Source: Halomonadaceae bacterium KBTZ08 (lineage in GTDB: Bacteria; Pseudomonadota; Gammaproteobacteria; Pseudomonadales; Oleiphilaceae). Taken from it: a stretch of 32,000 nt of DNA. This document shows positions 11,116-32,000 of this stretch, in pieces. Within the stretch, counting starts at the first letter, position 1, and every line of letters starts with the position of its first letter. The stretch is from contig CP182108.1 in NCBI GenBank assembly GCA_048013405.1, forward strand, positions 2,638,987 through 2,670,986, written 5' to 3'. The notes beneath the pieces are model-generated. The model searched no databases. It saw only the letters and a list, made by a program, of their open reading frames with translations, and was not told the DNA's origin. Position numbers and translations under genes: made by a program.

Positions 11116-11179
11116 CTCCGGGTGGCCGTCAGGCCACAGAACCAGCTACTGTCCTCCGCTTTTGTTAATGGCCGAGGGC

Positions 11180-12709
11180 ATGTCAGTGAAGGAGTGGGTT
11201 GTGATACACAAGATCAAGGCATTGCACGACAACGGCCAGGGCCTGTCGATCCGCGCCATCAGCCAGGAGCTGGGCGTATCCCGCAACACCGTGCGTAAGT
11301 ACCTGCGCATGGACGAGAGCGCGATCGGTCACCAACTGGACGATCCCGCCCGTACCAAGCGACTGGATGATTACCGGGATTATCTCGTTTATTTATTGGG
11401 CGAGTTTCCCAAGCTCAGTGCCGTCAAGATTGCCCGTAAGCTTCGGGCCAAGGTTGGGGAGCTGCCGGTATCGGATCGCTCCATACGCCGCTACGTGCAC
11501 ACACTCAAGGACGAAGTGGCTGTGGCCCAGCTGCGCTACTATGAGCCCATCGTGGACGATGTGGCGGGGGTTCAGTGCCAGGTGGATCCCGGTGAGTTGC
11601 GCGGGGTGTTGATCGGTGGTGAAGAACGCACACTGCACTTTGTGGTGTTCGTGCTGTCCTACTCGCGGTTGATGTACGTGGGCCTGGTCTTTCGCCCGCT
11701 GGATACGCAGACCTTTATCCAGCTCCACGATGAGGCCCTGCGTTACTTCGGTGGCCTGCCCGAGGAGTGCGTTTACGATCAGACCAAGCTGGTGGTGATC
11801 AACGAACAGTACCGCGAGCTCACCCTCAACCAGCGCTTCCACGAGTACGCCACTGCGGCCGGGTACCGGATCCATGCCTGTGAAGGCTATGACCCGGAGA
11901 GCAAGGGCAAGGTGGAGTCCGGCGTGAACTACGTCAAGCAGGATTGTCTCTACGGGGAAGTCTTCCGGGATCAGGCGCATGTGCGCGAGCACGTGCAGGA
12001 CTGGCTTGAGAGCGTGGCCAATGTGCGGATCCACGGCACCACCGGGGAGCCGCCCCGGGAGCGCTTTGAGCGCGACGAACGCCAGCACCTGAAGGCCTAT
12101 CTCGCACCGGCTTGCGTGCACTCAGTGGCCCGCCAGACCCGCCGCGCCGACAAGACGGGCCTGATCGCGTGGAAGGCCAATAAGTACTCGGTGCCCATGG
12201 CCTGGCAACAGGCGCGGGTGGGCGTTGTGGCCTCCGACGACGGCCAGCTCCACATCAGCGATCTGAATACGGGCGAGGTTATTGCCAGTCACACCCTGTC
12301 CGCCGACAAAGGTCGGATCATCAAGAACAACCACCACTACCGGGATCATGAGCAACGTCTGGATAAGCTGGAAGCCGACATTCGTGAACAGCTCGGCCAA
12401 GAGACAGGGCAGCGGTTGTGCCAGCAGCTCAAACGCTCTGGGCCCCGGATTTACAAGGATCAGCTGGTGGCGGCCAGGGAGCTGCTCAGCCACCACGCCC
12501 CCGTGGATCCCCAGTTGATCATGACGGTGGCCGATCGCCCCGGCATGACCGCCACGCGTTTGAGACGCTATCTGGAGGCGGCCGAGGCGGCCACCCAGCG
12601 CCAGCGAGAGCCGGAACCGGTTCCGGGGGCCGGTCAGGCACTGGATCTGAGCGCTTACCAGCAGCTTGGCCACTCCAGCGGCCAGGAGGTAACCCATGAG
12701 CCAGCTTGA
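11180..12709 (+). CDS. istA: IS21-family transposase IstA (HTH + DDE integrase core)
   Basis: ORF 11162..12709. N-terminal HTH ..GLSIRAISQELGVSRNTVRKYL.., a DDE-type core (..CQVDPGE.., ..VYDQTKLVV.., ..PESKGKVE..) and the IstA C-terminal region. The start is uncertain: ATG 11168, ATG 11180, or GTG 11201, which has an AAGGAG 6 nt upstream. Confidence 0.9.
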   Translation: MSVKEWVVIHKIKALHDNGQGLSIRAISQELGVSRNTVRKYLRMDESAIGHQLDDPARTKRLDDYRDYLVYLLGEFPKLSAVKIARKLRAKVGELPVSDRSIRRYVHTLKDEVAVAQLRYYEPIVDDVAGVQCQVDPGELRGVLIGGEERTLHFVVFVLSYSRLMYVGLVFRPLDTQTFIQLHDEALRYFGGLPEECVYDQTKLVVINEQYRELTLNQRFHEYATAAGYRIHACEGYDPESKGKVESGVNYVKQDCLYGEVFRDQAHVREHVQDWLESVANVRIHGTTGEPPRERFERDERQHLKAYLAPACVHSVARQTRRADKTGLIAWKANKYSVPMAWQQARVGVVASDDGQLHISDLNTGEVIASHTLSADKGRIIKNNHHYRDHEQRLDKLEADIREQLGQETGQRLCQQLKRSGPRIYKDQLVAARELLSHHAPVDPQLIMTVADRPGMTATRLRRYLEAAEAATQRQREPEPVPGAGQALDLSAYQQLGHSSGQEVTHEPA

Positions 12710-13436
12710 GCAGACCGTGGCCCGTTACCGCAGCCTGCGCCTGAGCGCGGCGGCGGACGAACTGACAAGCCTGTTGGCGCAAGCGGAAGCCAACGAGATG
12801 TCGTATCTGAGCTTCGCCGACCGGCTTGCCGAACACGAGCTGATCCAGCGACAGGACAAGCGGATCCGGCGCAATCGCAAAATGGCGGCCTTCCCCGCTG
12901 ACAAGCACCTGGAGGGGTTCGATTACCGCTACCAGACCACCATCACCAAGCGCCAGGTCAACGCCCTGCTGGACTTCCAGTTCATCGATGAGCGCAACAA
13001 CCTGGTGTTCATCGGCCCGCCCGGCGTGGGCAAGACCCACCTGGCCATCGGCATCGGCCACAAGGCCGTGGAGGCCGGCTACCGGGTCCTGTTCCGCAAC
13101 GCCCTGGATCTGGTCGAAGAGCTGGAGCTGGCCGAGATGAAGGGCGAGCTCAAAAAGCGGGTCAGCCAGCTGGCCAAGTACGACCTGTTGATCATCGATG
13201 AGCTGGGCTATCTGCCGATGACCCGCCAGGCAAGGTACAACCTGTTCCAGCTGATCAACAGCCTGTACGAGTACCGCTCGATCATCCTGACCACCAACAA
13301 GGACTTCACCAGCTGGGGCGAGTTCTTCCACGACGACAACGTGGCGGTACCGGTCATCGACCGGGTCATCCACCATTCACACATCTTTATGCTGGGAGGA
13401 GAAAGCTATCGGCTGAAGCAGAAAACCAAGACCTAG
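12696..13436 (+). CDS. istB: IS21-family transposition helper ATPase IstB
   Basis: 246-aa ORF overlapping the istA end. Walker A is GPPGVGKTHLA and Walker B is LLIIDELGY, within a typical IstB/DnaC-like AAA+ sequence. Confidence 0.92.
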   Translation: MSQLEQTVARYRSLRLSAAADELTSLLAQAEANEMSYLSFADRLAEHELIQRQDKRIRRNRKMAAFPADKHLEGFDYRYQTTITKRQVNALLDFQFIDERNNLVFIGPPGVGKTHLAIGIGHKAVEAGYRVLFRNALDLVEELELAEMKGELKKRVSQLAKYDLLIIDELGYLPMTRQARYNLFQLINSLYEYRSIILTTNKDFTSWGEFFHDDNVAVPVIDRVIHHSHIFMLGGESYRLKQKTKT

Positions 13437-13500: not shown

Positions 13501-16500
13501 GCGAACGGGCATCCACGATATCTACGGCCTGCAGGAAATTTTCTGAGCTGCCTACGCGGCAGCGAACCCATCCGTGGCGGTCGTTACCCCTGCGGTAGTT
13601 TTCTGAGCTGCCTACGCGGCAGCGAACGGCTCGGAAGAAGTTGCGGGTGATGTGCTTGTTTTCTGAGCTGCCTACGCGGCAGCGAACGCGACAGCTTCCA
13701 GCCTGCGTACAGCGTGGATTTTCTGAGCTGCCTACGCGGCAGCGAACGGTCAGCTCCGCGATTTCCCGGCTGGACATTGTGTTTCTGAGCTGCCTACGCG
13801 GCAGCGAACGTCCAGGATGCCCGCAAGTATGCAGACCTGGATTTCTGAGCTGCCTACGCGGCAGCGAACGGCCAACCTTTGGGGCGAGGACAAGGTCTCT
13901 CTTTTCTGAGCTGCCTACGCGGCAGCGAACAACTTTACGACGCTTTTCGGGAAGGCTCGGAATTTTCTGAGCTGCCTACGCGGCAGCGAACGATATGACG
14001 ATTCAGGATGATGAATCAGTGATTTTCTGAGCTGCCTACGCGGCAGCGAACCGGCTTGTCAAGCTAAAGGCTGGCTACGCAAGTTTCTGAGCTGCCTACG
14101 CGGCAGCGAACTCGTCGTCATCCCAGTTTTTTGCCTGCTCTTTTTTCTGAGCTGCCTACGCGGCAGCGAACCTATGGGATTACGCTACCGCTGCTGTGCT
14201 ACATTTCTGAGCTGCCTACGCGGCAGCGAACTAAGAACTGCGAGGGGTCCGGCCATCTTCTCTGTTTCTGAGCTGCCTACGCGGCAGCGAACCTCGGTGA
14301 TCTTGATATAACGTACTCGGTCCATTTCTGAGCTGCCTACGCGGCAGCGAACGCCCGCCTGATGGGGTTCTATCAGGGTCTGAAGTTTCTGAGCTGCCTA
14401 CGCGGCAGCGAACAAATAATGGCGGACAGAATGATGGAAATGTTCTTTCTGAGCTGCCTACGCGGCAGCGAACCGAAGCATGAGTCAAAACGTATACACC
14501 ACAGTCTTTCTGAGCTGCCTACGCGGCAGCGAACTGCTGCCCATGTTGAGCCATCTGGGGATGATATTTCTGAGCTGCCTACGCGGCAGCGAACCTTAAC
14601 GTACGTTTCAACCGTCTGGTAGGTGTTTTCTGAGCTGCCTACGCGGCAGCGAACCACTCCTTCCGGTTAAGACAACCAGTCGTATATTTCTGAGCTGCCT
14701 ACGCGGCAGCGAACGACCGTCGCGCCCTGGTGCTCGTGTAGCGACTTTTCTGAGCTGCCTACGCGGCAGCGAACGGGCAAGCTCGGAAAGCGCTACTGGG
14801 ATGTATTTTCTGAGCTGCCTACGCGGCAGCGAACGTGGTAATGATCATATTTCATGAGGGGTTACCATTTCTGAGCTGCCTACGCGGCAGCGAACGTCTT
14901 ATGCGGAAAGGCAGCGCCAGAGCGGGGATTTCTGAGCTGCCTACGCGGCAGCGAACAATCACCAACGTCAATCCCGTCGCTGCCACTCTTTTCTGAGCTG
15001 CCTACGCGGCAGCGAACGGTCATCGACAATGAGCGCAGTAAGCCGCTTGATTTCTGAGCTGCCTACGCGGCAGCGAACAAGGAACGGTTTAATAGCGAGG
15101 CCGGCATGACTTTTCTGAGCTGCCTACGCGGCAGCGAACTCGCTTAGACAATGGTTTGTCGACTGCCTCCATTTCTGAGCTGCCTACGCGGCAGCGAACA
15201 TCGAAGACGGCATTATCCGGCGGCTCTCTCGCTTTCTGAGCTGCCTACGCGGCAGCGAACCCGACCTTGGGCGTAGCCTGACAGGGCGTTGTTTTCTGAG
15301 CTGCCTACGCGGCAGCGAACGAAAGAGGGGACGTAAAAACGGCAACCAATCATTTCTGAGCTGCCTACGCGGCAGCGAACAGGGAAACGTGGTCTTTTTT
15401 GAGGCCCGGTAGTTTCTGAGCTGCCTACGCGGCAGCGAACCGCTGATATTTGAAACTTTAGGCGAACTGTTCTTTCTGAGCTGCCTACGCGGCAGCGAAC
15501 AACTTCCTTTGTAATGCCGCCCGCGTTCCTGCTTTCTGAGCTGCCTACGCGGCAGCGAACTGAGCCAGACCCTGAACCTGTTCTTCCTGTTCTTTCTGAG
15601 CTGCCTACGCGGCAGCGAACTGGGACAGTATGACTGTTGCCGCCGCTCGCCATTTCTGAGCTGCCTACGCGGCAGCGAACGGCGAAAAGATGGCGTACAT
15701 GATTACGTACAGTTTCTGAGCTGCCTACGCGGCAGCGAACTTCCCCGACATGGCCACGTCGCCCGGCCAGTATTTCTGAGCTGCCTACGCGGCAGCGAAC
15801 ATCCTTCATAATCTCGTGGATGTCCCGACCTTTTTCTGAGCTGCCTACGCGGCAGCGAACCTGGCAGACGGTTGCAGCTTACGTAAGCTCTGGTTTCTGA
15901 GCTGCCTACGCGGCAGCGAACGAGGAGGCTGTGGCGTGGCGGGTAAGCCACCCGTTTTCTGAGCTGCCTACGCGGCAGCGAACGGATGATGAGGGCTTCA
16001 CGGAATTCGATGCCTTTTCTGAGCTGCCTACGCGGCAGCGAACATCGTCGGCGTCTTGTGCCCAGTCTCGGAGTTTTTCTGAGCTGCCTACGCGGCAGCG
16101 AACGCTGGCTCATTGAGTTTTTAAGCTGGCTGCATTTTCTGAGCTGCCTACGCGGCAGCGAACTTCGGCGAAGTTGCAGCTGCTGATCTATTTTCTTTCT
16201 GAGCTGCCTACGCGGCAGCGAACGATTTGACGGACCTTGGCTGCGTGCTTGCGGATTTTCTGAGCTGCCTACGCGGCAGCGAACAAACCGGCCTGCACGT
16301 CCACCCGGAATACGACTTTTCTGAGCTGCCTACGCGGCAGCGAACGCGGTTTGTAGGCTTAAACTCCCGCGCAGCCGTTTCTGAGCTGCCTACGCGGCAG
16401 CGAACGCGGCGAAAACCTAGTGTTTGGTACCGCGGCATTTCTGAGCTGCCTACGCGGCAGCGAACGCTAACGGCGGCTACCTGTCTGGCAGGTCAGCTTT

Positions 16501-17370
16501 CTGAGCTGCCTACGCGGCAGCGAACCTCAGTTTCCGGGAATCAACTACTGGGCACGATTTCTGAGCTGCCTACGCGGCAGCGAACCCGGGGAAAAGGCGG
16601 AAGCCTCCCCGGAGCGGTTTCTGAGCTGCCTACGCGGCAGCGAACGCAATGGGTACACGCTCGCATGGCGGGCGAATTTTTCTGAGCTGCCTACGCGGCA
16701 GCGAACGCCCGTTCTGTTTTATCAAGGGCATGACCAGCTTTCTGAGCTGCCTACGCGGCAGCGAACACGATCCGACAAACGCCAGCCACCGGGGGGCATT
16801 TCTGAGCTGCCTACGCGGCAGCGAACTTGCGGTACCGGACAAGCTCGCGGGGCGTTATTTTCTGAGCTGCCTACGCGGCAGCGAACACATAGGACCATGG
16901 CCGGAAAAGACGCCTATGCTTTCTGAGCTGCCTACGCGGCAGCGAACGTGGACGCCGACTGGATGCTCGGTCGCCTTAATTTCTGAGCTGCCTACGCGGC
17001 AGCGAACCATAGTCATCCGTGATCTTGCCAAAACTAATATTTCTGAGCTGCCTACGCGGCAGCGAACACTCAGGTTGTAGTTGTTTATGACACATCAGGA
17101 TTTCTGAGCTGCCTACGCGGCAGCGAACAATATGTTTCGCGCCAGCGCGGGCAATATCACTTTTCTGAGCTGCCTACGCGGCAGCGAACATCAACAGCAT
17201 CAACGGGGCGGCGATACAGCTTTTCTGAGCTGCCTACGCGGCAGCGAACATTCACTCGCGTCAGTTCTGCGTATATAGAAACTTTCTGAGCTGCCTACGC
17301 GGCAGCGAACCTGGACGACCAAATCGAAGAGTGGGATCGCCATTTCTGAGCTGCCTACGCGGCAGCGAAC
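13501..17370 (-). CRISPR. Type I-F CRISPR array: 64 identical 28-nt repeats plus a 6-9 nt repeat stump at the IS junction; 64 spacers
   Basis: The plus-strand repeat is TTTCTGAGCTGCCTACGCGGCAGCGAAC. The minus-strand sense is GTTCGCTGCCGCGTAGGCAGCTCAGAAA (compare canonical I-F GTTCACTGCCGTATAGGCAGCTAAGAAA). I located 64 repeat starts by hand, from 13540 to 17343. Periods are 60, 61 or 62 nt (spacers 32-34 nt). The leader-proximal repeat is 17343-17370, next to cas6f. The distal end is cut at 13501-13506 (GCGAAC) by the IS. Confidence 0.97.
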
Positions 17371-25878: not shown

Positions 25879-26844
25879 TCACCAGTACAAGCCGTGCATG
25901 CGTGAGACCTGGTCCGCAACATCCCGCCTCAATGCCTCGGGACCAATCACTTCCACGTCGGGCCCATAACGGAGAACTTCCATAACCAACTCCGTTGGGT
26001 CCGCGTAGGGTACGTAGAGGTGGAAAAAGCCATCGGCGGTCCATTGGCTCTGCTGGTCCGGGTGCCACAGTTCCTCGGCGCTCCAGCGCGCCGCCCGTGG
26101 TGAGAAGCAAAGATGGGCCGTTTGGCGCGCTTCGCCGGTGAAGATGCCGAAACTGGTGCCAAATTCGGCGTCCAGGGTTTCGGGCGGGCATTCATGGGCG
26201 TTGCTGCTGGTGACGCAAGTGGCGTTGATCCGGTCCAGCGAGAACAGGCGCAGCGCCCCGGTTTCATGGCACCAGCCCAGCAGGTACCAGTTGGAGCGGT
26301 AGTGCAGCAGCCGCTGCGGGCTGATGGTTCGTTCCTGCGTCTGCTCCCGGCTGCGGCTGGTGTAGCGAACATGGAGCTGGAGGCCACGAAGGGTCGCCTC
26401 GGCCACATTGCGGAAGATGGACTCCGGGGCATGGCGGGCCAGGATGGGCTGGATCCGGATGCGTTCGCTCAGGCGCTGGGCCGTGTCGCCGTCGTCGCCC
26501 AGAAGCTCCCGGATGCGGTTCTTGAGCGGGGCCAGGTGCGGCGTCATCAGCCCGGGCTGGACGGCTTCCAGCAGTTGCTCGCTGGCCAGCAGGGCGTGGA
26601 GCTCGCTGGCGTTCATCCAGAAGCCGGGGAGCTCGAAAACCGGTTCCTCGGGGTCGTATTCGTGGCCGTTGTGCTCGCGGTTGTAGGTGATGGGCGCGCG
26701 GAGGATGTCGCGCATGAACTGGAAGTCGCGCGTGATGGTGTTGCGCGAGGCCTCCAGGGATTCCATGAACCGCTGCATCGGCACCGGCGAACGCGCCGAG
26801 CGCAGCATGTCATGGATGCGGTAGATGCGTTCGATCTGGCTCAC
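25879..26844 (-). CDS. HTH-WYL-WCX transcriptional regulator (YafY/CapW/BrxR-like)
   Basis: 321 aa, GTG start at 26844 (AAGGA 6 nt upstream). N-terminal winged-HTH ..MQRFMESLEASRNTITRDFQFMRD... Central WYL domain ..SPQRLLHYRSNWYLLGWCHETGALRLFSLDRI... C-terminal WCX-like ..VPYADPTELVMEVLRYGPDVEVIGPEALR... It lies 88 nt upstream of cas1 on the same strand. Confidence 0.85.
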   Translation of the reverse strand: MSQIERIYRIHDMLRSARSPVPMQRFMESLEASRNTITRDFQFMRDILRAPITYNREHNGHEYDPEEPVFELPGFWMNASELHALLASEQLLEAVQPGLMTPHLAPLKNRIRELLGDDGDTAQRLSERIRIQPILARHAPESIFRNVAEATLRGLQLHVRYTSRSREQTQERTISPQRLLHYRSNWYLLGWCHETGALRLFSLDRINATCVTSSNAHECPPETLDAEFGTSFGIFTGEARQTAHLCFSPRAARWSAEELWHPDQQSQWTADGFFHLYVPYADPTELVMEVLRYGPDVEVIGPEALRRDVADQVSRMHGLYW

Positions 26845-27051
26845 TGGACGTCCTTATGGGGCTGCTTATGCGCCTCTTGAACACCATCTTTAGCACAGGT
26901 TTCTCATGGATTTGAACCAGTGGCAAGGGGGGTAAAGATAAACCGGGCTTAATTGGGCTGGCTTGTCACCATTGACGGGGAAGTTGTAAGCTTTATCCAG
27001 GTTCTGGCAAAAGCCATGGAAACAGGGAATAGAGAAGCAAGGAGCAAGGGA

Positions 27052-27936
27052 ATGGCAGATTTCAGGATTCAGGCCACTGTGGGTCAGGGTGGAGACAACC
27101 GCGCGAATGACTGCAAGCTGATATGCGCCCTCCTCAATGTCTATGCCCGCAAAAAGGGAAAGGACACCGTTGAAATCAAGAAAAAGGCCGACTCGGATGT
27201 CATTACCGCAATAGAGGGGTTTCAGAAAGATCAACTGGGTATGGACAAGCCCGACGGTCGTGTTGACGTCGGTGCTGGCACCTGGCGTGAATTAAACAGG
27301 GTTCTGAAATCCACCCGCACCACAAAGTCGATCACCCCACCCGAAAACGGCGTTATAACCTGGAAAGCGGAAGGCAATGAAGGCGGCCCCTTCCACAGCC
27401 GTATCCTGCACGTCCCAAGTCAGTGGTCTGGCCTGACATTGGGGCGCGGTTACGATATGAAATACCGGGAGAAAGCGGCTATTGTCTCGGCTTTGACGAA
27501 AGTTGGTGTCAATGGAGATAAAGCCAAGCGGATCAGTCACGGTGCGGGTAAAAGTGGCGGGAAGGCGAGACAGGTTATCATTGATCAGGATCTTCTGGAT
27601 TTTGAGATAAGCCCGAAGGGGCAGCTTCAGTTGTTTGAGCAGGTTTACGGTGAGTATGTTGAAAGGGCCAAGCGACTTTCTTTGACGAACAGGTATGCAA
27701 AAAAATATAAGAAAACTGAGTGGGGGAGTCTCAACCCAAAAATAAAGAATGTTCTTGTGGATTTGACGTATCGTGGCGATTATAGGCCGGATACCATGAA
27801 ATTTCTACAGAAGCACGTTTCAAATAATGATTTTAGTAAATTTAAAATAGAATTGGAGAAAAGGGGTAATTGGTCAAACGTGCCAGAAAATCGTTTTCAG
27901 GCACGGGTTTCCTATTTAAATGAAGGTTCAGGGTAG
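27052..27936 (+). CDS. Peptidoglycan-binding-domain protein with a C-terminal pesticin/T4-lysozyme-like (muramidase-type) domain; no signal peptide
   Basis: ATG at 27052 (AAGGAG 7 nt upstream), 294 aa. The N-terminal PG_binding_1-like segment is ..ITAIEGFQKDQLGMDKPDGRVDVGAGTWRELN... The C-terminal segment is ..WKAEGNEGGPFHSRILHVPSQWSGLTLGRGYDM...WGSLNPKIKNVLVDLTYRGDY.., resembling the lysozyme-like E...T-x5-D arrangement of pesticin-family toxins. The assignment is from motif recognition only. Confidence 0.6.
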   Translation: MADFRIQATVGQGGDNRANDCKLICALLNVYARKKGKDTVEIKKKADSDVITAIEGFQKDQLGMDKPDGRVDVGAGTWRELNRVLKSTRTTKSITPPENGVITWKAEGNEGGPFHSRILHVPSQWSGLTLGRGYDMKYREKAAIVSALTKVGVNGDKAKRISHGAGKSGGKARQVIIDQDLLDFEISPKGQLQLFEQVYGEYVERAKRLSLTNRYAKKYKKTEWGSLNPKIKNVLVDLTYRGDYRPDTMKFLQKHVSNNDFSKFKIELEKRGNWSNVPENRFQARVSYLNEGSG

Positions 27937-27940
27937 AGGT

Positions 27941-28414
27941 ATGACAATGTTTTCATTGTTAAAGAGGGCTGGGATGATGTTGGTTATAGGGGGGGCGGCC
28001 TCACTTACTTATGCGCAACCCTATTTCCAGGTGCCAGCTGATGTCTCTGAGCTGAAAGCTGAACGTCTTAACGGCGTTATATTCCGCTATATCGAATTTT
28101 TTGACTACCCTTGTTTGCGCCTTGAAACGCTGGCCCTGAGCGAGGGGAGTCTATCGGTTGACGCACAAAAAGACATCTGCAGCCTTACTCCCAAAGGAGA
28201 AGATCCGATAACCTTTAAGAAGAATGTGACCTCTGTCGTTTCTGATGATATTAAGGAGCAAGATGCGAGTTTTTCATTTCGTGCAGAGTACGTTCTAGCC
28301 GAAGTAAGTGCGCCAATCTTCTATACCGACTGCAACGTGAAGGTTGAAACGACGGGTGCGCTGGGCGAGGTCAAATGCGGTCCGAGGAAGCAACTCGATC
28401 TTGATGCTGAGTGA
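27941..28414 (+). CDS. Sec-exported small protein with four Cys (candidate periplasmic immunity protein)
   Basis: ATG at 27941 or 27947, just after the upstream stop (27934-27936), with GAGG upstream. MTMFSLLKRAGMMLVIGGAASLTYA/QP is a cleavable signal peptide. The mature protein is about 130 aa with four Cys and no recognisable enzymatic motif. It shares the low G+C of the preceding gene. Confidence 0.55.
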   Translation: MTMFSLLKRAGMMLVIGGAASLTYAQPYFQVPADVSELKAERLNGVIFRYIEFFDYPCLRLETLALSEGSLSVDAQKDICSLTPKGEDPITFKKNVTSVVSDDIKEQDASFSFRAEYVLAEVSAPIFYTDCNVKVETTGALGEVKCGPRKQLDLDAE

Positions 28415-29252
28415 GCCCTTGCTCGGGCGTTGCGTCTTCACCCAGCGCGGTGGGCGCAGGAATGACCATAGGATAGCCCTCTGGAAGTTGAATAACCCGG
28501 CATTGGAGGCCGTAGACCGCTTCCAGGGTTGGGGGTCTCAGCACCTCCTCCGGTGCGCCTTCGGCAAAGACCACGCCGTTGTGGAGCAGCATCATGCGGT
28601 CGGCGTACTGGGCGGCCAGGTTGAGGTCGTGCACCGCCACCAGCAGGGCAACGCCCTGGTCCGCGAGGCGTCGCAGCTCGCGGAAGATCAGTTGCTGGTG
28701 GGCTGGGTCCAGCGCCGAGGAGCATTCATCCAGCAACAGCAGTAGTGGTCCGGGTTGCTCCCAGATCTGCGCCAGCACGCGGGCGAGTTGGACGCGTTGC
28801 TGCTCGCCGCCCGAAAGGGTGGGGACAAGGCGTTCGCCGAGCTGGGCAATGTCCAGGCGGTTCAGGAGTTCGTCGATCACCCGGCGCCGCTGGGCAGTAC
28901 TTTCGCGCGGGCGGCCGAGGGCGATGACTTCCCGCGCCGTCATGGGGAACTGCAGCTCAACGCTCTGGGGCATGACGGCGCGGTGGCGCGCGAGGTCCGA
29001 CTGGCGCCATTCCGACAGGGCGTGTTCGCCAAAGCGAACCCGGTCGGCATCCAGTTCAATCTCGCCGGCCAGTGCCCGGATCAGGGTGGATTTGCCGGCG
29101 CCATTGGGTCCGAGAAGCGTCACCACCTCGCCCGGCTTCAATGTCAGCGAGAGGTCCTGGATGATGGGTTGGCCGCCAAGGTGGACGGAGATGGCGTTGG
29201 CTTCCAGTACCGCGGTGTGTTGGAACAGGGGCGTTGGGTCGTTCGGCATCAT
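28371..29252 (-). CDS. hmuV: Hemin ABC transporter ATP-binding protein HmuV
   Basis: 293 aa. Walker A GPNGAGKST, signature LSGGEQQRV, Walker B LLLLDE. ATGA overlap with hmuU. The C-terminal tail is unusually long and overlaps the convergent gene by 44 nt. Confidence 0.88.
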   Translation of the reverse strand: MMPNDPTPLFQHTAVLEANAISVHLGGQPIIQDLSLTLKPGEVVTLLGPNGAGKSTLIRALAGEIELDADRVRFGEHALSEWRQSDLARHRAVMPQSVELQFPMTAREVIALGRPRESTAQRRRVIDELLNRLDIAQLGERLVPTLSGGEQQRVQLARVLAQIWEQPGPLLLLLDECSSALDPAHQQLIFRELRRLADQGVALLVAVHDLNLAAQYADRMMLLHNGVVFAEGAPEEVLRPPTLEAVYGLQCRVIQLPEGYPMVIPAPTALGEDATPEQGLTQHQDRVASSDRI

Positions 29253-30289: not shown

Positions 30290-31136
30290 CGGCGGTTGCC
30301 TTGGCTTGCGGTACCACGGAGGCGACCTCGGCCATTGCCTTGGGCAGCCGGGGCCCGAAGCCCAGAAGGAGCATGGCGTTGGCGCTCAGGTGGTGCCCCT
30401 GGTTCCAGGCGTCGAGCTTCCTGAGCGCTGGCCAGTCGTCCGCCGCGAACTGTCCGGGGTTGGCTTCGGCGATGACGATGGCGTCCGGCGCGGCGGCGAG
30501 AAAAGACTCCCGGCTGGCCGGCTTATACCCGGAGACGTCCTGCAGGGCGTTTTCAAGACCCAGCGAGGCCAGCAGGGCATCCGCCGAGGTGTCCTGGCCC
30601 GCGAGCATCAGCCCACGGTTGCCGGCGGCCAACAGAACCAGGACCCGGGCTTGGGCCTTGCCTTTCATTGTCTGGCGGATCGCCTTGATTCGCTTGGCCA
30701 TGGTCTGGGTCAGCTCCTGGGCTTGGCGTTCGCGATTGACGAGATCGCCAACCCGGCGGATGCGTTCCATGGCGGCCTCGGGGGTGCGCGCCACTGGCAG
30801 CTGGAAGACGCTGACGCCGGCGTTTTCAATCCGCCGCAGCGTCTTGTCCGGCCCGGCCTCTTCCGTGGTGATCAGCCGGGTTGGCTTCAGCGACAGGATG
30901 CCTTCCAGAGGGAGCGCGCGCAGATAACCAACCTTGGGGAGCTTGTTCACGACCCTGGGCGGGTAGTGACTGGTGGTATCCACCGCCACCAGTTGGTCCG
31001 CCGCGCCTAGCGCGGCGATGGTTTCGGTGATGGCGCCGTCGGCGCTGATGGTTCTGGGTTCAGCGTGAGCCGTTGATGCGAACGTGATGAACACCAACGA
31101 CCACAAGAGGGCGAGCCTTGGAGCGGTGCGTGTCAT
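30279..31136 (-). CDS. hmuT: Hemin ABC transporter periplasmic binding protein HmuT
   Basis: 285 aa. Signal peptide MTRTAPRLALLWSLVFITFASTAHA. Class III (helical backbone) SBP-like sequence. Overlaps hmuU by 11 nt. Confidence 0.85.
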   Translation of the reverse strand: MTRTAPRLALLWSLVFITFASTAHAEPRTISADGAITETIAALGAADQLVAVDTTSHYPPRVVNKLPKVGYLRALPLEGILSLKPTRLITTEEAGPDKTLRRIENAGVSVFQLPVARTPEAAMERIRRVGDLVNRERQAQELTQTMAKRIKAIRQTMKGKAQARVLVLLAAGNRGLMLAGQDTSADALLASLGLENALQDVSGYKPASRESFLAAAPDAIVIAEANPGQFAADDWPALRKLDAWNQGHHLSANAMLLLGFGPRLPKAMAEVASVVPQAKATADAH

Positions 31137-32000
31137 GATTCAGTCTCGTCCTGAAAGTCAACGTCCACCCAGCGCACCTTGGGGTGGCCGCTGGTGCCGG
31201 CGTCGTTGTAATAGCTGACTACCTGGAGCGCGTAGACCGGGGCCTGTTCGTCGGTCCTGTCGGTATCGATCAGGTAGACCCGGTAGTTGGGCCAGAGTTG
31301 ATGTTCGCCCTGAAGGTTGTAGGCGTACCAGGATTGGTCGGAGAAGATGCCGCCGGTGGTGTCGGCGCGGTAATGGCCGGTGATGTCACCCCCTTCGGGG
31401 CTTGTGGTGGCGCTGTTGTAGTTCTTGGCCTCGCTCCAGGCCATGGGGCCGAAAACGCCCGCGTCGCCGTTGCCGGAGACGCCGCTGTTGCTGCGCAGGT
31501 ACAGGTTCCGTTCCTGCACGCCCACCTTGATGTCCCAGCTGCTGGCGGTGTCGCAGTCAACACTGGCGTTGCTGTCAAAGTCGAAGCAGGCTTCGCCGCC
31601 GCTGCTTGGCAGTGTGCCCGAGAATGACGCGCTCGTGGCGAAGGCGCTGTTGCCCGCGGGCTGGACGTCGAAATCGAACTGGAACTCGGCGCCGCCATTG
31701 GCGGCCGGGTAATCGAACTGGTTCACCCTGAGCCGGGCGTAGCTGTCGCCCTCAGCCGAGCGAAGCAGCCAGCCATTGTCCGGGTTGGCGGACACGGTGT
31801 GGGTCTCCCGGTTGTAGGTGTACCAGGCGTCCCCGAATTCCGTGACGACGGCGTCGCTGGTCCAGGAGTCGGGGGCGCTCAGGGTGGCCAGCAGGTGTTC
31901 CTTTTCGCTGTCCGCCGTAGCGTTCAGGAAGACGCTGGCGTTGGGGGAGCCGTCCTCGGTGTAGAAGTCCGACTGGGCCACACCGACCGCGCCGGCCACA
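31133..32000 (-). CDS. HmuY-like heme-binding family protein, C-terminal part (gene continues beyond the window end)
   Basis: The open frame runs to the window edge and ends with an ATGA overlap onto hmuT. Segments such as ..WDIKVGVQERNLYLRSNSGVSGNGDAGVFG.. and ..YALQVVSYYN.. resemble the HmuY family. The heme-uptake context supports this. Confidence 0.5.
   Translation of the reverse strand, partial: VAGAVGVAQSDFYTEDGSPNASVFLNATADSEKEHLLATLSAPDSWTSDAVVTEFGDAWYTYNRETHTVSANPDNGWLLRSAEGDSYARLRVNQFDYPAANGGAEFQFDFDVQPAGNSAFATSASFSGTLPSSGGEACFDFDSNASVDCDTASSWDIKVGVQERNLYLRSNSGVSGNGDAGVFGPMAWSEAKNYNSATTSPEGGDITGHYRADTTGGIFSDQSWYAYNLQGEHQLWPNYRVYLIDTDRTDEQAPVYALQVVSYYNDAGTSGHPKVRWVDVDFQDETES

Follow-up and report, generated by a model that had tools for sequence, protein, structure and literature searches.

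What is the function of an AT-rich cassette of two genes that lies between a WYL regulator gene, which itself abuts a CRISPR-Cas locus, and the genes of a heme transporter? We addressed this question for positions 26845 to 28414 of a 32,000-nucleotide stretch of the genome of Halomonadaceae bacterium KBTZ08 (the whole stretch is called the window, and all positions refer to it unless a locus from another genome is named). An earlier reading made from the sequence letters alone, referred to here as the sequence-only reading, had proposed a cell-wall-degrading toxin (gene 1) with a periplasmic immunity protein (gene 2) and, alternatively, a regulated lysis or abortive-infection module. The analysis supported the first proposal and sharpened it, through the gene clusters of homologues and a characterized module fused to VgrG, to type VI secretion system (T6SS) cargo. 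We consider it probable, with good but not full confidence, that the cassette is a horizontally acquired orphan antibacterial T6SS effector-immunity pair, and by analogy its best reading is as the free-standing form of a peptidoglycan-binding plus pesticin module known on VgrG.

Both open reading frames (ORFs) of the AT-rich cassette exist as proposed. The G+C content of 26845-28414 was 0.482, the minimum among all 1570-nucleotide segments of the 32 kb (mean, 0.608; standard deviation, 0.041), and G+C at third codon positions (GC3) was 0.53 in gene 1 and 0.50 in gene 2, compared to 0.76 to 0.84 in the flanking hmuV/U/T and WYL genes and in lptD. Because of this minimum and the contrast in GC3 with the flanking genes, the low composition is real and not a matter of chance. 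The G+C values of 35 to 43% that had been counted by hand for individual lines were true local minima (0.30 to 0.47 at 27700-27999) but do not represent the cassette average. At the left edge, G+C dropped from 0.65 to 0.47 across 26700-26999, and at the right edge it was back at 0.59 to 0.65 from 28400 onward. The cassette is thus foreign by composition, which supports its horizontal acquisition. Both the left edge of the low-G+C segment and the ribosome-binding site of gene 1 lie in the intergenic region between the WYL gene and gene 1 (26845-27051); scans of this region for promoters, terminators, and repeats yielded nothing above shuffle expectation and no strong inverted repeat. At the right edge, the hmuV ORF carries a nonhomologous C-terminal tail of 28 residues (28371-28457, minus strand): hmuV homology (NF010068) ends at residue 265 of 293 in the ORF, and the tail extends 44 nucleotides into the 3' end of gene 2 on the opposite strand. 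Such an overlap is expected if insertion of the cassette displaced the native hmuV stop codon, which it probably did.

Gene 1 (27052-27936, plus strand) encodes a protein of 294 amino acids (33 kDa), whose sequence matches NCBI hypothetical protein ACMDCT_12305 from this organism at 100% identity. Its ATG at 27052 is preceded at a distance of 7 nucleotides by the ribosome-binding site AAGGAG (27039-27044) and is backed by the alignment of homologues, which starts at that Met; a longer TTG-initiated frame from 26953 found no support. A protein search returned 222 homologues of about 290 to 330 amino acids that were 40 to 51% identical and nearly all unannotated. The AlphaFold2 (AF2) model of gene 1, built on the homologue alignment, had a predicted local distance difference test score (pLDDT) of 91.8 and was folded from about residue 10, and the protein has no signal peptide, in agreement with the lack of an export signal noted from the sequence.

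Two domains were recognized in this model, and no further domain was detected by Pfam or Foldseek: a PG_binding_1-like N-domain (residues about 1 to 95; 27052-27336, plus strand) and a predicted pesticin/T4-lysozyme-like muramidase domain (residues about 100 to 294; 27349-27933, plus strand). When the model was compared to the PDB by Foldseek, the 11 best matches were all pesticin crystal structures (prob 1.00; E = 1.3e-04 to 4.7e-03); next came T4-lysozyme-like proteins (the endolysins AbLys1 and EC340, and T4 lysozyme itself). Residues about 10 to 90 matched the peptidoglycan-binding domains of SleB-N (6tci), SleC (9h68), and CtpB (4c2h), with root mean square deviations of 2.3 to 2.7 Å (prob 0.97 to 0.99). 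The proposed combination of a peptidoglycan-binding N-domain with a lysozyme-like C-domain was hence confirmed at the level of fold. PDB searches by sequence, with either the gene 1 protein or the family profile, gave no match, and the link to pesticin was revealed only by fold search and profile-profile comparison. In the latter, the pesticin sequence of Yersinia pestis was taken from pPCP1 (numbering of the template was offset by one, with the start codon clipped), and hhalign aligned the family profile to pesticin residues 171 to 243 only (prob 79%; E = 1.6e-05).

This alignment places E110 (27379-27381), T129 (27436-27438), and D135 (27454-27456; all plus strand) on E178, T201, and D207 of pesticin, and these predicted catalytic residues were invariant across 26 sequences, with the spacing E-19-T-6-D. 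The pesticin-like motif given in the sequence-only reading was right as to the Thr and the Asp 6 residues after it, but the Glu is E110 (in NEGG) and not E107 (in AEG), which places it 19 rather than about 22 residues before the Thr; E107 is also invariant in the family. Gene 1 is full length and retains every family-invariant residue. When 26 family representatives were scanned against Pfam, 22 matched PF16754 (Pesticin) at E ≤ 0.1 (best, 1.1e-06) and 6 matched PF01471 (PG_binding_1; best, 1.8e-06). Judged from these profiles, the gene 1 family forms a divergent branch that lies at the margin of the PF16754 model, and from its modeled fold and the likeness to pesticin and T4 lysozyme, gene 1 is predicted to encode a muramidase.

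Given that pesticin is the closest solved fold, the pair might represent a bacteriocin of the pesticin type and its immunity protein, with a diffusible toxin that is set free by lysis and taken up via an outer-membrane receptor. The combination of a toxin with periplasmic immunity follows the same logic as in pesticin and Pim, and the cassette adjoins a heme-uptake operon. However, the alignment to pesticin is restricted to the muramidase region, the N-domain has the PG_binding_1 fold and is not a translocation or receptor-binding domain, and there is no adjacent lysis or receptor gene. Moreover, homologues sit in T6SS clusters, and gene 2 is unrelated to Pim (see below). We regard a bacteriocin as improbable. 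The T4-lysozyme-like fold would also suit a prophage endolysin or the remnant of a phage lysis cassette, and two distant relatives (28 to 31% identity) were located on prophage-like contigs of IMG/VR. Nevertheless, tblastn of 50,697 phage genomes gave no match, and only 2 loci were present in the 2.9 million viral contigs of IMG/VR, compared to 262 in species-representative genomes. Both IMG/VR loci were pairs of an effector and an LprI-like inhibitor, and neither lay in a lysis cassette (one, L096, is near an integrase and a helix-turn-helix [HTH] regulator, and the other, L095, is near a RecT gene). In the window, no holin or spanin gene is adjacent. Descent from a phage lysis gene is barely credible. 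The homologues were not consistently the prophage endolysin or spanin genes that the sequence-only reading had named as the outcome that would speak against a toxin, but mostly pairs that stand alone or in T6SS clusters.

Gene 2 (27941-28414, plus strand; an alternative longer frame begins at 27920) encodes a protein of 157 amino acids that is 100% identical to ACMDCT_12310. Its ATG lies 5 nucleotides past the TAG of gene 1, and its purine-rich ribosome-binding site AGAGG overlaps that stop codon, so that the two genes appear to be translationally coupled. A Sec leader is predicted at residues 1 to 25 (27941-28015), with K8 and R9 in the n-region, a hydrophobic core, and cleavage at TYA|QP. 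The start position, the leader, and the four Cys residues (Cys58, Cys80, Cys131, and Cys146) were all as first noted. C131 and C146 are invariant in both subfamilies of gene 2 homologues, and C58 (in a YPCLR motif) and C80 are conserved in the subfamily of the window; the protein is probably stabilized by two disulfides. The AF2 model (pLDDT, 80.7) comprises an eight-stranded all-beta domain from about residue 35, with residues 1 to 28 disordered.

The gene 2 protein matched no Pfam model, nor is there a Pfam model for its family, and scans of the protein against NCBIfam and PHROG were likewise uninformative; Foldseek found no credible neighbor of its model in the PDB (best E, 0.089, to beta-propeller fragments), and PADLOC gave nothing credible (best E, 0.04). 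Kinship with the pesticin immunity protein Pim, which gene 2 resembles in size, was considered and rejected: a profile of 24 immunity sequences compared to Y. pestis Pim by hhalign gave a prob of 0.07 (E = 0.71), and thus the likeness suggested earlier holds for size but not for homology. An exhaustive search of 1.84 billion proteins was needed to size the family (136 cluster representatives at 50% identity), since a word-indexed search with the immunity profile returned 7 proteins only. The family is small, unannotated, and undescribed; TsiI2 and TsiV3cp, the immunity proteins of two VgrG-fused effectors, were compared to it by description only. Together, the two genes have the layout by which effector-immunity pairs are recognized, that is, an effector without a leader, an adjacent and co-oriented immunity gene, and a location of the immunity protein that fits the compartment targeted by the toxin.

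The pairing is conserved beyond this genome. A scan of one genome per species yielded 262 loci, and 38 nonredundant two-domain loci from other genomes were examined (individual loci are numbered with the prefix L, and their coordinates are those of the locus). A gene 2 homologue was directly downstream of the effector in 34 of the 38, and all gene 2 homologues at these loci bear N-terminal signal or lipoprotein-like leaders. Tandem immunity paralogues followed a single effector in three loci, all from Cellvibrionaceae or Pseudomonadales (L026, 10931-11816; L031, 10857-12354; L035, 10916-11834). T6SS markers were found near 10 of the 38 loci and near 8 of the 25 for which 8 kb or more was available on each side. 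The gene order in Marinobacter and Marinobacteraceae was clpV-hcp-vgrG, two genes of unknown function, effector, immunity gene, and rhs. In Pseudoalteromonas, Pseudocolwellia, and Colwellia, the order was vgrG-PAAR, two such genes, and rhs, with the pair at the end of the cluster. In P. shioyasakiensis p1, PGAP annotation listed tssH, Hcp, TssI/VgrG, PAAR, RHS, and an immunity 49 family protein directly before the pair. In the main T6SS cluster of Thioclava, tssH and an LprI lysozyme-inhibitor gene precede a relative consisting of the catalytic domain only. In other relatives, the fusion partner of the muramidase domain is Amidase_3 or a set of PG_binding_1 repeats together with a TseH-like domain. 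The loci without T6SS genes were orphan pairs located between unrelated housekeeping genes, beside an integrase, or in islands, including an island that holds both a Tae4 effector and defense-like genes; one pair is 2.5 kb away from a Tae4 effector, and the pair of L088 lies among defense-like genes.

Several further features of these loci were recorded. The genes of unknown function encode proteins of 270 and 270 amino acids in Marinobacter (L002, 4683-6304; likewise in L017, L019, L027, L030, and L038) and of 383 and 340 amino acids in Pseudocolwellia (L001, 636-2806); they are conserved and are flanked by vgrG or PAAR on one side and by effector or Rhs genes on the other. A Pfam scan of these proteins returned no family, and they could, at a guess, be adaptors or chaperones. 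In Pseudocolwellia, a second pair stands right after the effector-immunity pair (L001, 9471-10729). It consists of a toxin with the same PG_binding_1-like N-domain and a CHAP amidase domain, followed by a signal-peptide protein of 147 amino acids, and homologues of both proteins are encoded about 2.5 kb upstream of the pair in L010 (6509-8328). As the N-domain is shared with this CHAP-domain protein, it seems to be the leading domain of cell-wall toxins of more than one kind, and it is possible that this strongly conserved domain doubles as a T6SS-loading marker for polymorphic cell-wall effectors. Muramidase relatives in Thioclava (L092, 11471-12615) and on a prophage-like contig (L096, 4968-6334) are paired with an inhibitor of the LprI/DUF1311 type. 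Compared to the immunity family of the window, this indicates that one toxin domain has taken up immunity partners of two or more unrelated folds.

From the characterized homologous module fused to VgrG (PMC9620997, PMC9927483), we infer muramidase activity, T6SS-dependent delivery in this organism, and neutralization by gene 2. The gene 1 protein would be synthesized in the cytoplasm, join the Hcp/VgrG/PAAR spike as cargo, and be delivered by injection to the periplasm of a neighboring Gram-negative cell. There its N-domain would bind peptidoglycan, and the pesticin-like domain would cut the glycan strand, E110 serving as the acid together with T129 and D135, and so bring about lysis. The gene 2 protein, exported by Sec to the periplasm of the producer, would block the effector arriving from sister cells by direct binding.

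Several observations weigh against this interpretation. No T6SS gene was found in the 32-kb window, and only about one-third of the well-flanked homologous loci were linked to a T6SS; the T6SS-linked loci come from few lineages (Marinobacter and Pseudoalteromonas/Colwellia), so that their counts overstate independence. At the level of sequence, the suggested check against profile models succeeded for relatives of gene 1, which match PF16754 and PF01471 as described above, but not for gene 1 itself, which matched no Pfam family at E ≤ 1 and no NCBIfam, PHROG, or PADLOC model. Several relatives scored 19 to 22 bits on PF16754, for which the cutoff is 25.8. Pfam detected no known T6SS marker domain in gene 1, which bears no marker of the MIX, FIX, or RIX type, and no search aimed at WHIX was made. 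Assignment of the pair to the T6SS class draws on predicted fold, gene context, and the analogy with VgrG-fused effectors.

Part of this evidence would also suit a pair that is of T6SS type by origin but is not used offensively here, in a genome without a compatible T6SS. It might then be kept as a defensive immunity gene alongside a silent or decaying effector, or it might be recent hitchhiking DNA. The lack of T6SS genes in the window, the foreign composition of the cassette, and the orphan state of most homologous loci are compatible with this, and orphan immunity islets are known from the literature. Yet gene 1 is full length with its family-invariant residues intact, has a good ribosome-binding site, and is coupled to gene 2, and a related contig has both retained and diversified the two genes at the same site. 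We consider nonoffensive use unlikely, although it deserves more weight than any other alternative to an active T6SS effector-immunity pair.

The retention at the same site became apparent from closer relatives, which are known only from short metagenomic contigs. In one of these (L093), the effector was 81% and the immunity protein 65% identical to those of the window; on these sequences, the immunity protein appears to diverge faster than the effector, as in an arms race. Another (L094, contig SRR12122875) aligned over its positions 1 to 1118 to window positions 27441 to 28548. Nucleotide identity was 95 to 100% over 27441-27660, fell to 48 to 68% over 27660-28320 (effector residues about 204 to 294 and most of the immunity gene), and was 78 to 93% from 28320 into the 3' end of hmuV, where scattered single-base changes left 91% identity. 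The cassette is therefore present at the same hmuV junction in a related organism. Of the earlier claim of a recent foreign insertion, the foreign composition stands, but this strain is not the only carrier of the insertion.

L094 is a mosaic, and the alignment suggests recombinational swapping at a conserved insertion site, which exchanged the C-lobe of the effector (about 90 residues) together with most of the immunity gene and left flanks nearly identical to the window on either side. Joint exchange of this kind would be expected of a toxin-antidote pair that is subject to diversifying selection, and it singles out the C-lobe of the effector as the likely surface for binding of, and specificity toward, the immunity protein. 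Both genes were kept at this site as they diversified, which speaks for selection still acting on the pair.

The position of the cassette raised one more alternative. It is divergent from an HTH-WYL-WCX gene (25879-26844, minus strand) that runs in the same direction as the adjoining cas1 of a type I-F system, and the sequence-only reading had therefore considered a lysis or abortive-infection module under WYL control as part of the CRISPR/defense island. In this scheme, which we hold to be very improbable, the WYL regulator would derepress the pair on phage infection or CRISPR signaling, and the muramidase would serve as a suicide or kin-killing lysis factor. Apart from the divergent arrangement, the homologous pair among defense-like genes in L088 is in favor of such a module. 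However, when homologous pairs were surveyed for neighboring WYL regulators, no WYL, Cas1, Cas3f, or Csy homologue was present in any other fetched locus, and PADLOC gave no credible match for either protein. In addition, a muramidase located in the cytoplasm has no way to the wall unless there is a holin, and to export an inhibitor is meaningful only if the toxin arrives in the periplasm. Orphan T6SS effectors and defense systems are known to be co-located in variable hotspots, described as "genomic armories," without functional coupling (bioRxiv 10.64898/2026.08.01.741415). The proposal of a lysis or abortive-infection module is thus not supported and is likewise very improbable. Proximity of the T6SS-type pair to the WYL gene and CRISPR-Cas I-F looks coincidental, reflecting a shared variable hotspot and not a shared function. 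Because offensive and defensive cargo share hotspots, caution is warranted, and a toxin-like pair beside a WYL gene and CRISPR-Cas need not be a defense system.

The cassette is the final item of a variable island between core genes, which comprises, in order, an IS21 element, a CRISPR array, cas genes, the WYL gene, and the cassette. The core genes to the left are lptD, surA, pdxA, rsmA, thiG, and a gene for a solute-binding protein, and the heme ABC transporter genes (hmuV/hmuU/hmuT) are to the right of the cassette. The IS21 element (istA/istB, 11162-13436) directly adjoins the type I-F CRISPR array (13540-17370), which consists of 64 perfectly identical 28-nucleotide repeats and 63 spacers; a 198-amino-acid ORF inside the array (15213-15809) is spurious. 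After the array comes a complete type I-F cas operon (Cas6f, Csy3, Csy2, Csy1, Cas3f, and Cas1f), followed by the WYL gene. The WYL ORF and the longest cas1 ORF share 44 nucleotides (25879-25922). Since the match to the Cas1f model begins only at residue 56 of the latter, it is probable that cas1 has its start further downstream and that WYL is the first gene of the cas operon. Downstream of hmuT, a 288-amino-acid ORF (31133-31999, minus strand) had no NCBIfam match at E ≤ 1e-10. A literature search found no paper on strain KBTZ08.

Taken as a T6SS effector-immunity pair, the cassette allows a function to be proposed for a family of hypothetical proteins (222 homologues in the protein search and 262 loci in species representatives) and for an immunity family of about 136 clusters. 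It further suggests that the peptidoglycan-binding plus pesticin toxin of VgrG spikes circulates among marine and halophilic Gammaproteobacteria in free form as well, as a cassette of two genes. Pesticin-domain T6SS effectors, orphan mobile cassettes, and co-location with defense systems are all already established; what is new here is a free-standing uncharacterized pair with an undescribed immunity family, which will be unsurprising to a T6SS specialist.

Among known systems, pesticin-Pim of Y. pestis (pPCP1) shares with the cassette the closest solved catalytic fold, the same triad, and the logic of a toxin with periplasmic immunity. Pesticin is, however, a diffusible bacteriocin with TonB-box and FyuA-binding domains, both of which are lacking in the gene 1 protein, and Pim is not related to gene 2. 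The genomic behavior of the pair resembles that of MIX V cassettes, and the analogy extends to this behavior only, as these belong to another effector class, carry the MIX marker, and have toxic domains of other kinds. Marine gammaproteobacteria share mobile orphan effector-immunity cassettes, and those of MIX V are bicistronic, lie away from T6SS clusters and beside mobile elements, pass horizontally between marine bacteria, and can be used by a resident T6SS (PMC4549250). Pesticin-like domains are also common C termini of WHIX T6SS effectors (448 WHIX proteins are so equipped), the neighbors of which are mostly signal-peptide proteins taken as immunity proteins (PMC12135965). These are T6SS cargo with a pesticin-like toxic domain as well, but their delivery is via the WHIX domain, in place of which gene 1 has a PG_binding_1-like N-domain.

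The nearest parallels are found on VgrG: there the peptidoglycan-binding plus pesticin module has been proven to be a T6SS muramidase, and its immunity protein is exported by Sec (PMC9620997, PMC9927483). In Vibrio cholerae E1, VgrG3cp-TsiV3cp is VgrG fused and encoded in a main T6SS cluster, whereas the copy in the window is an orphan outside any T6SS cluster. Like gene 1 and gene 2, it combines a peptidoglycan-binding and pesticin-like toxin with a cognate downstream immunity gene; its muramidase activity is proven to be T6SS dependent, and its essential Asp is equivalent to D207 of pesticin, and so to D135 of gene 1 (PMC9927483). In TssI2 of Vibrio fluvialis VflT6SS2, the module is also on VgrG, as its C-terminal extension, and gene 1, as a free-standing protein of 294 amino acids, would need a separate loading route. 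In other respects, the TssI2-TsiI2 gene pair is alike: a PG_binding domain is followed by a pesticin-like domain with Glu/Thr/Asp spacing of 19/6, the residues of which (E844, T863, and D869) were essential by mutagenesis (PMC9620997), the toxin acts in the periplasm, and a small Sec-exported immunity protein (TsiI2, 127 amino acids) is encoded immediately downstream.

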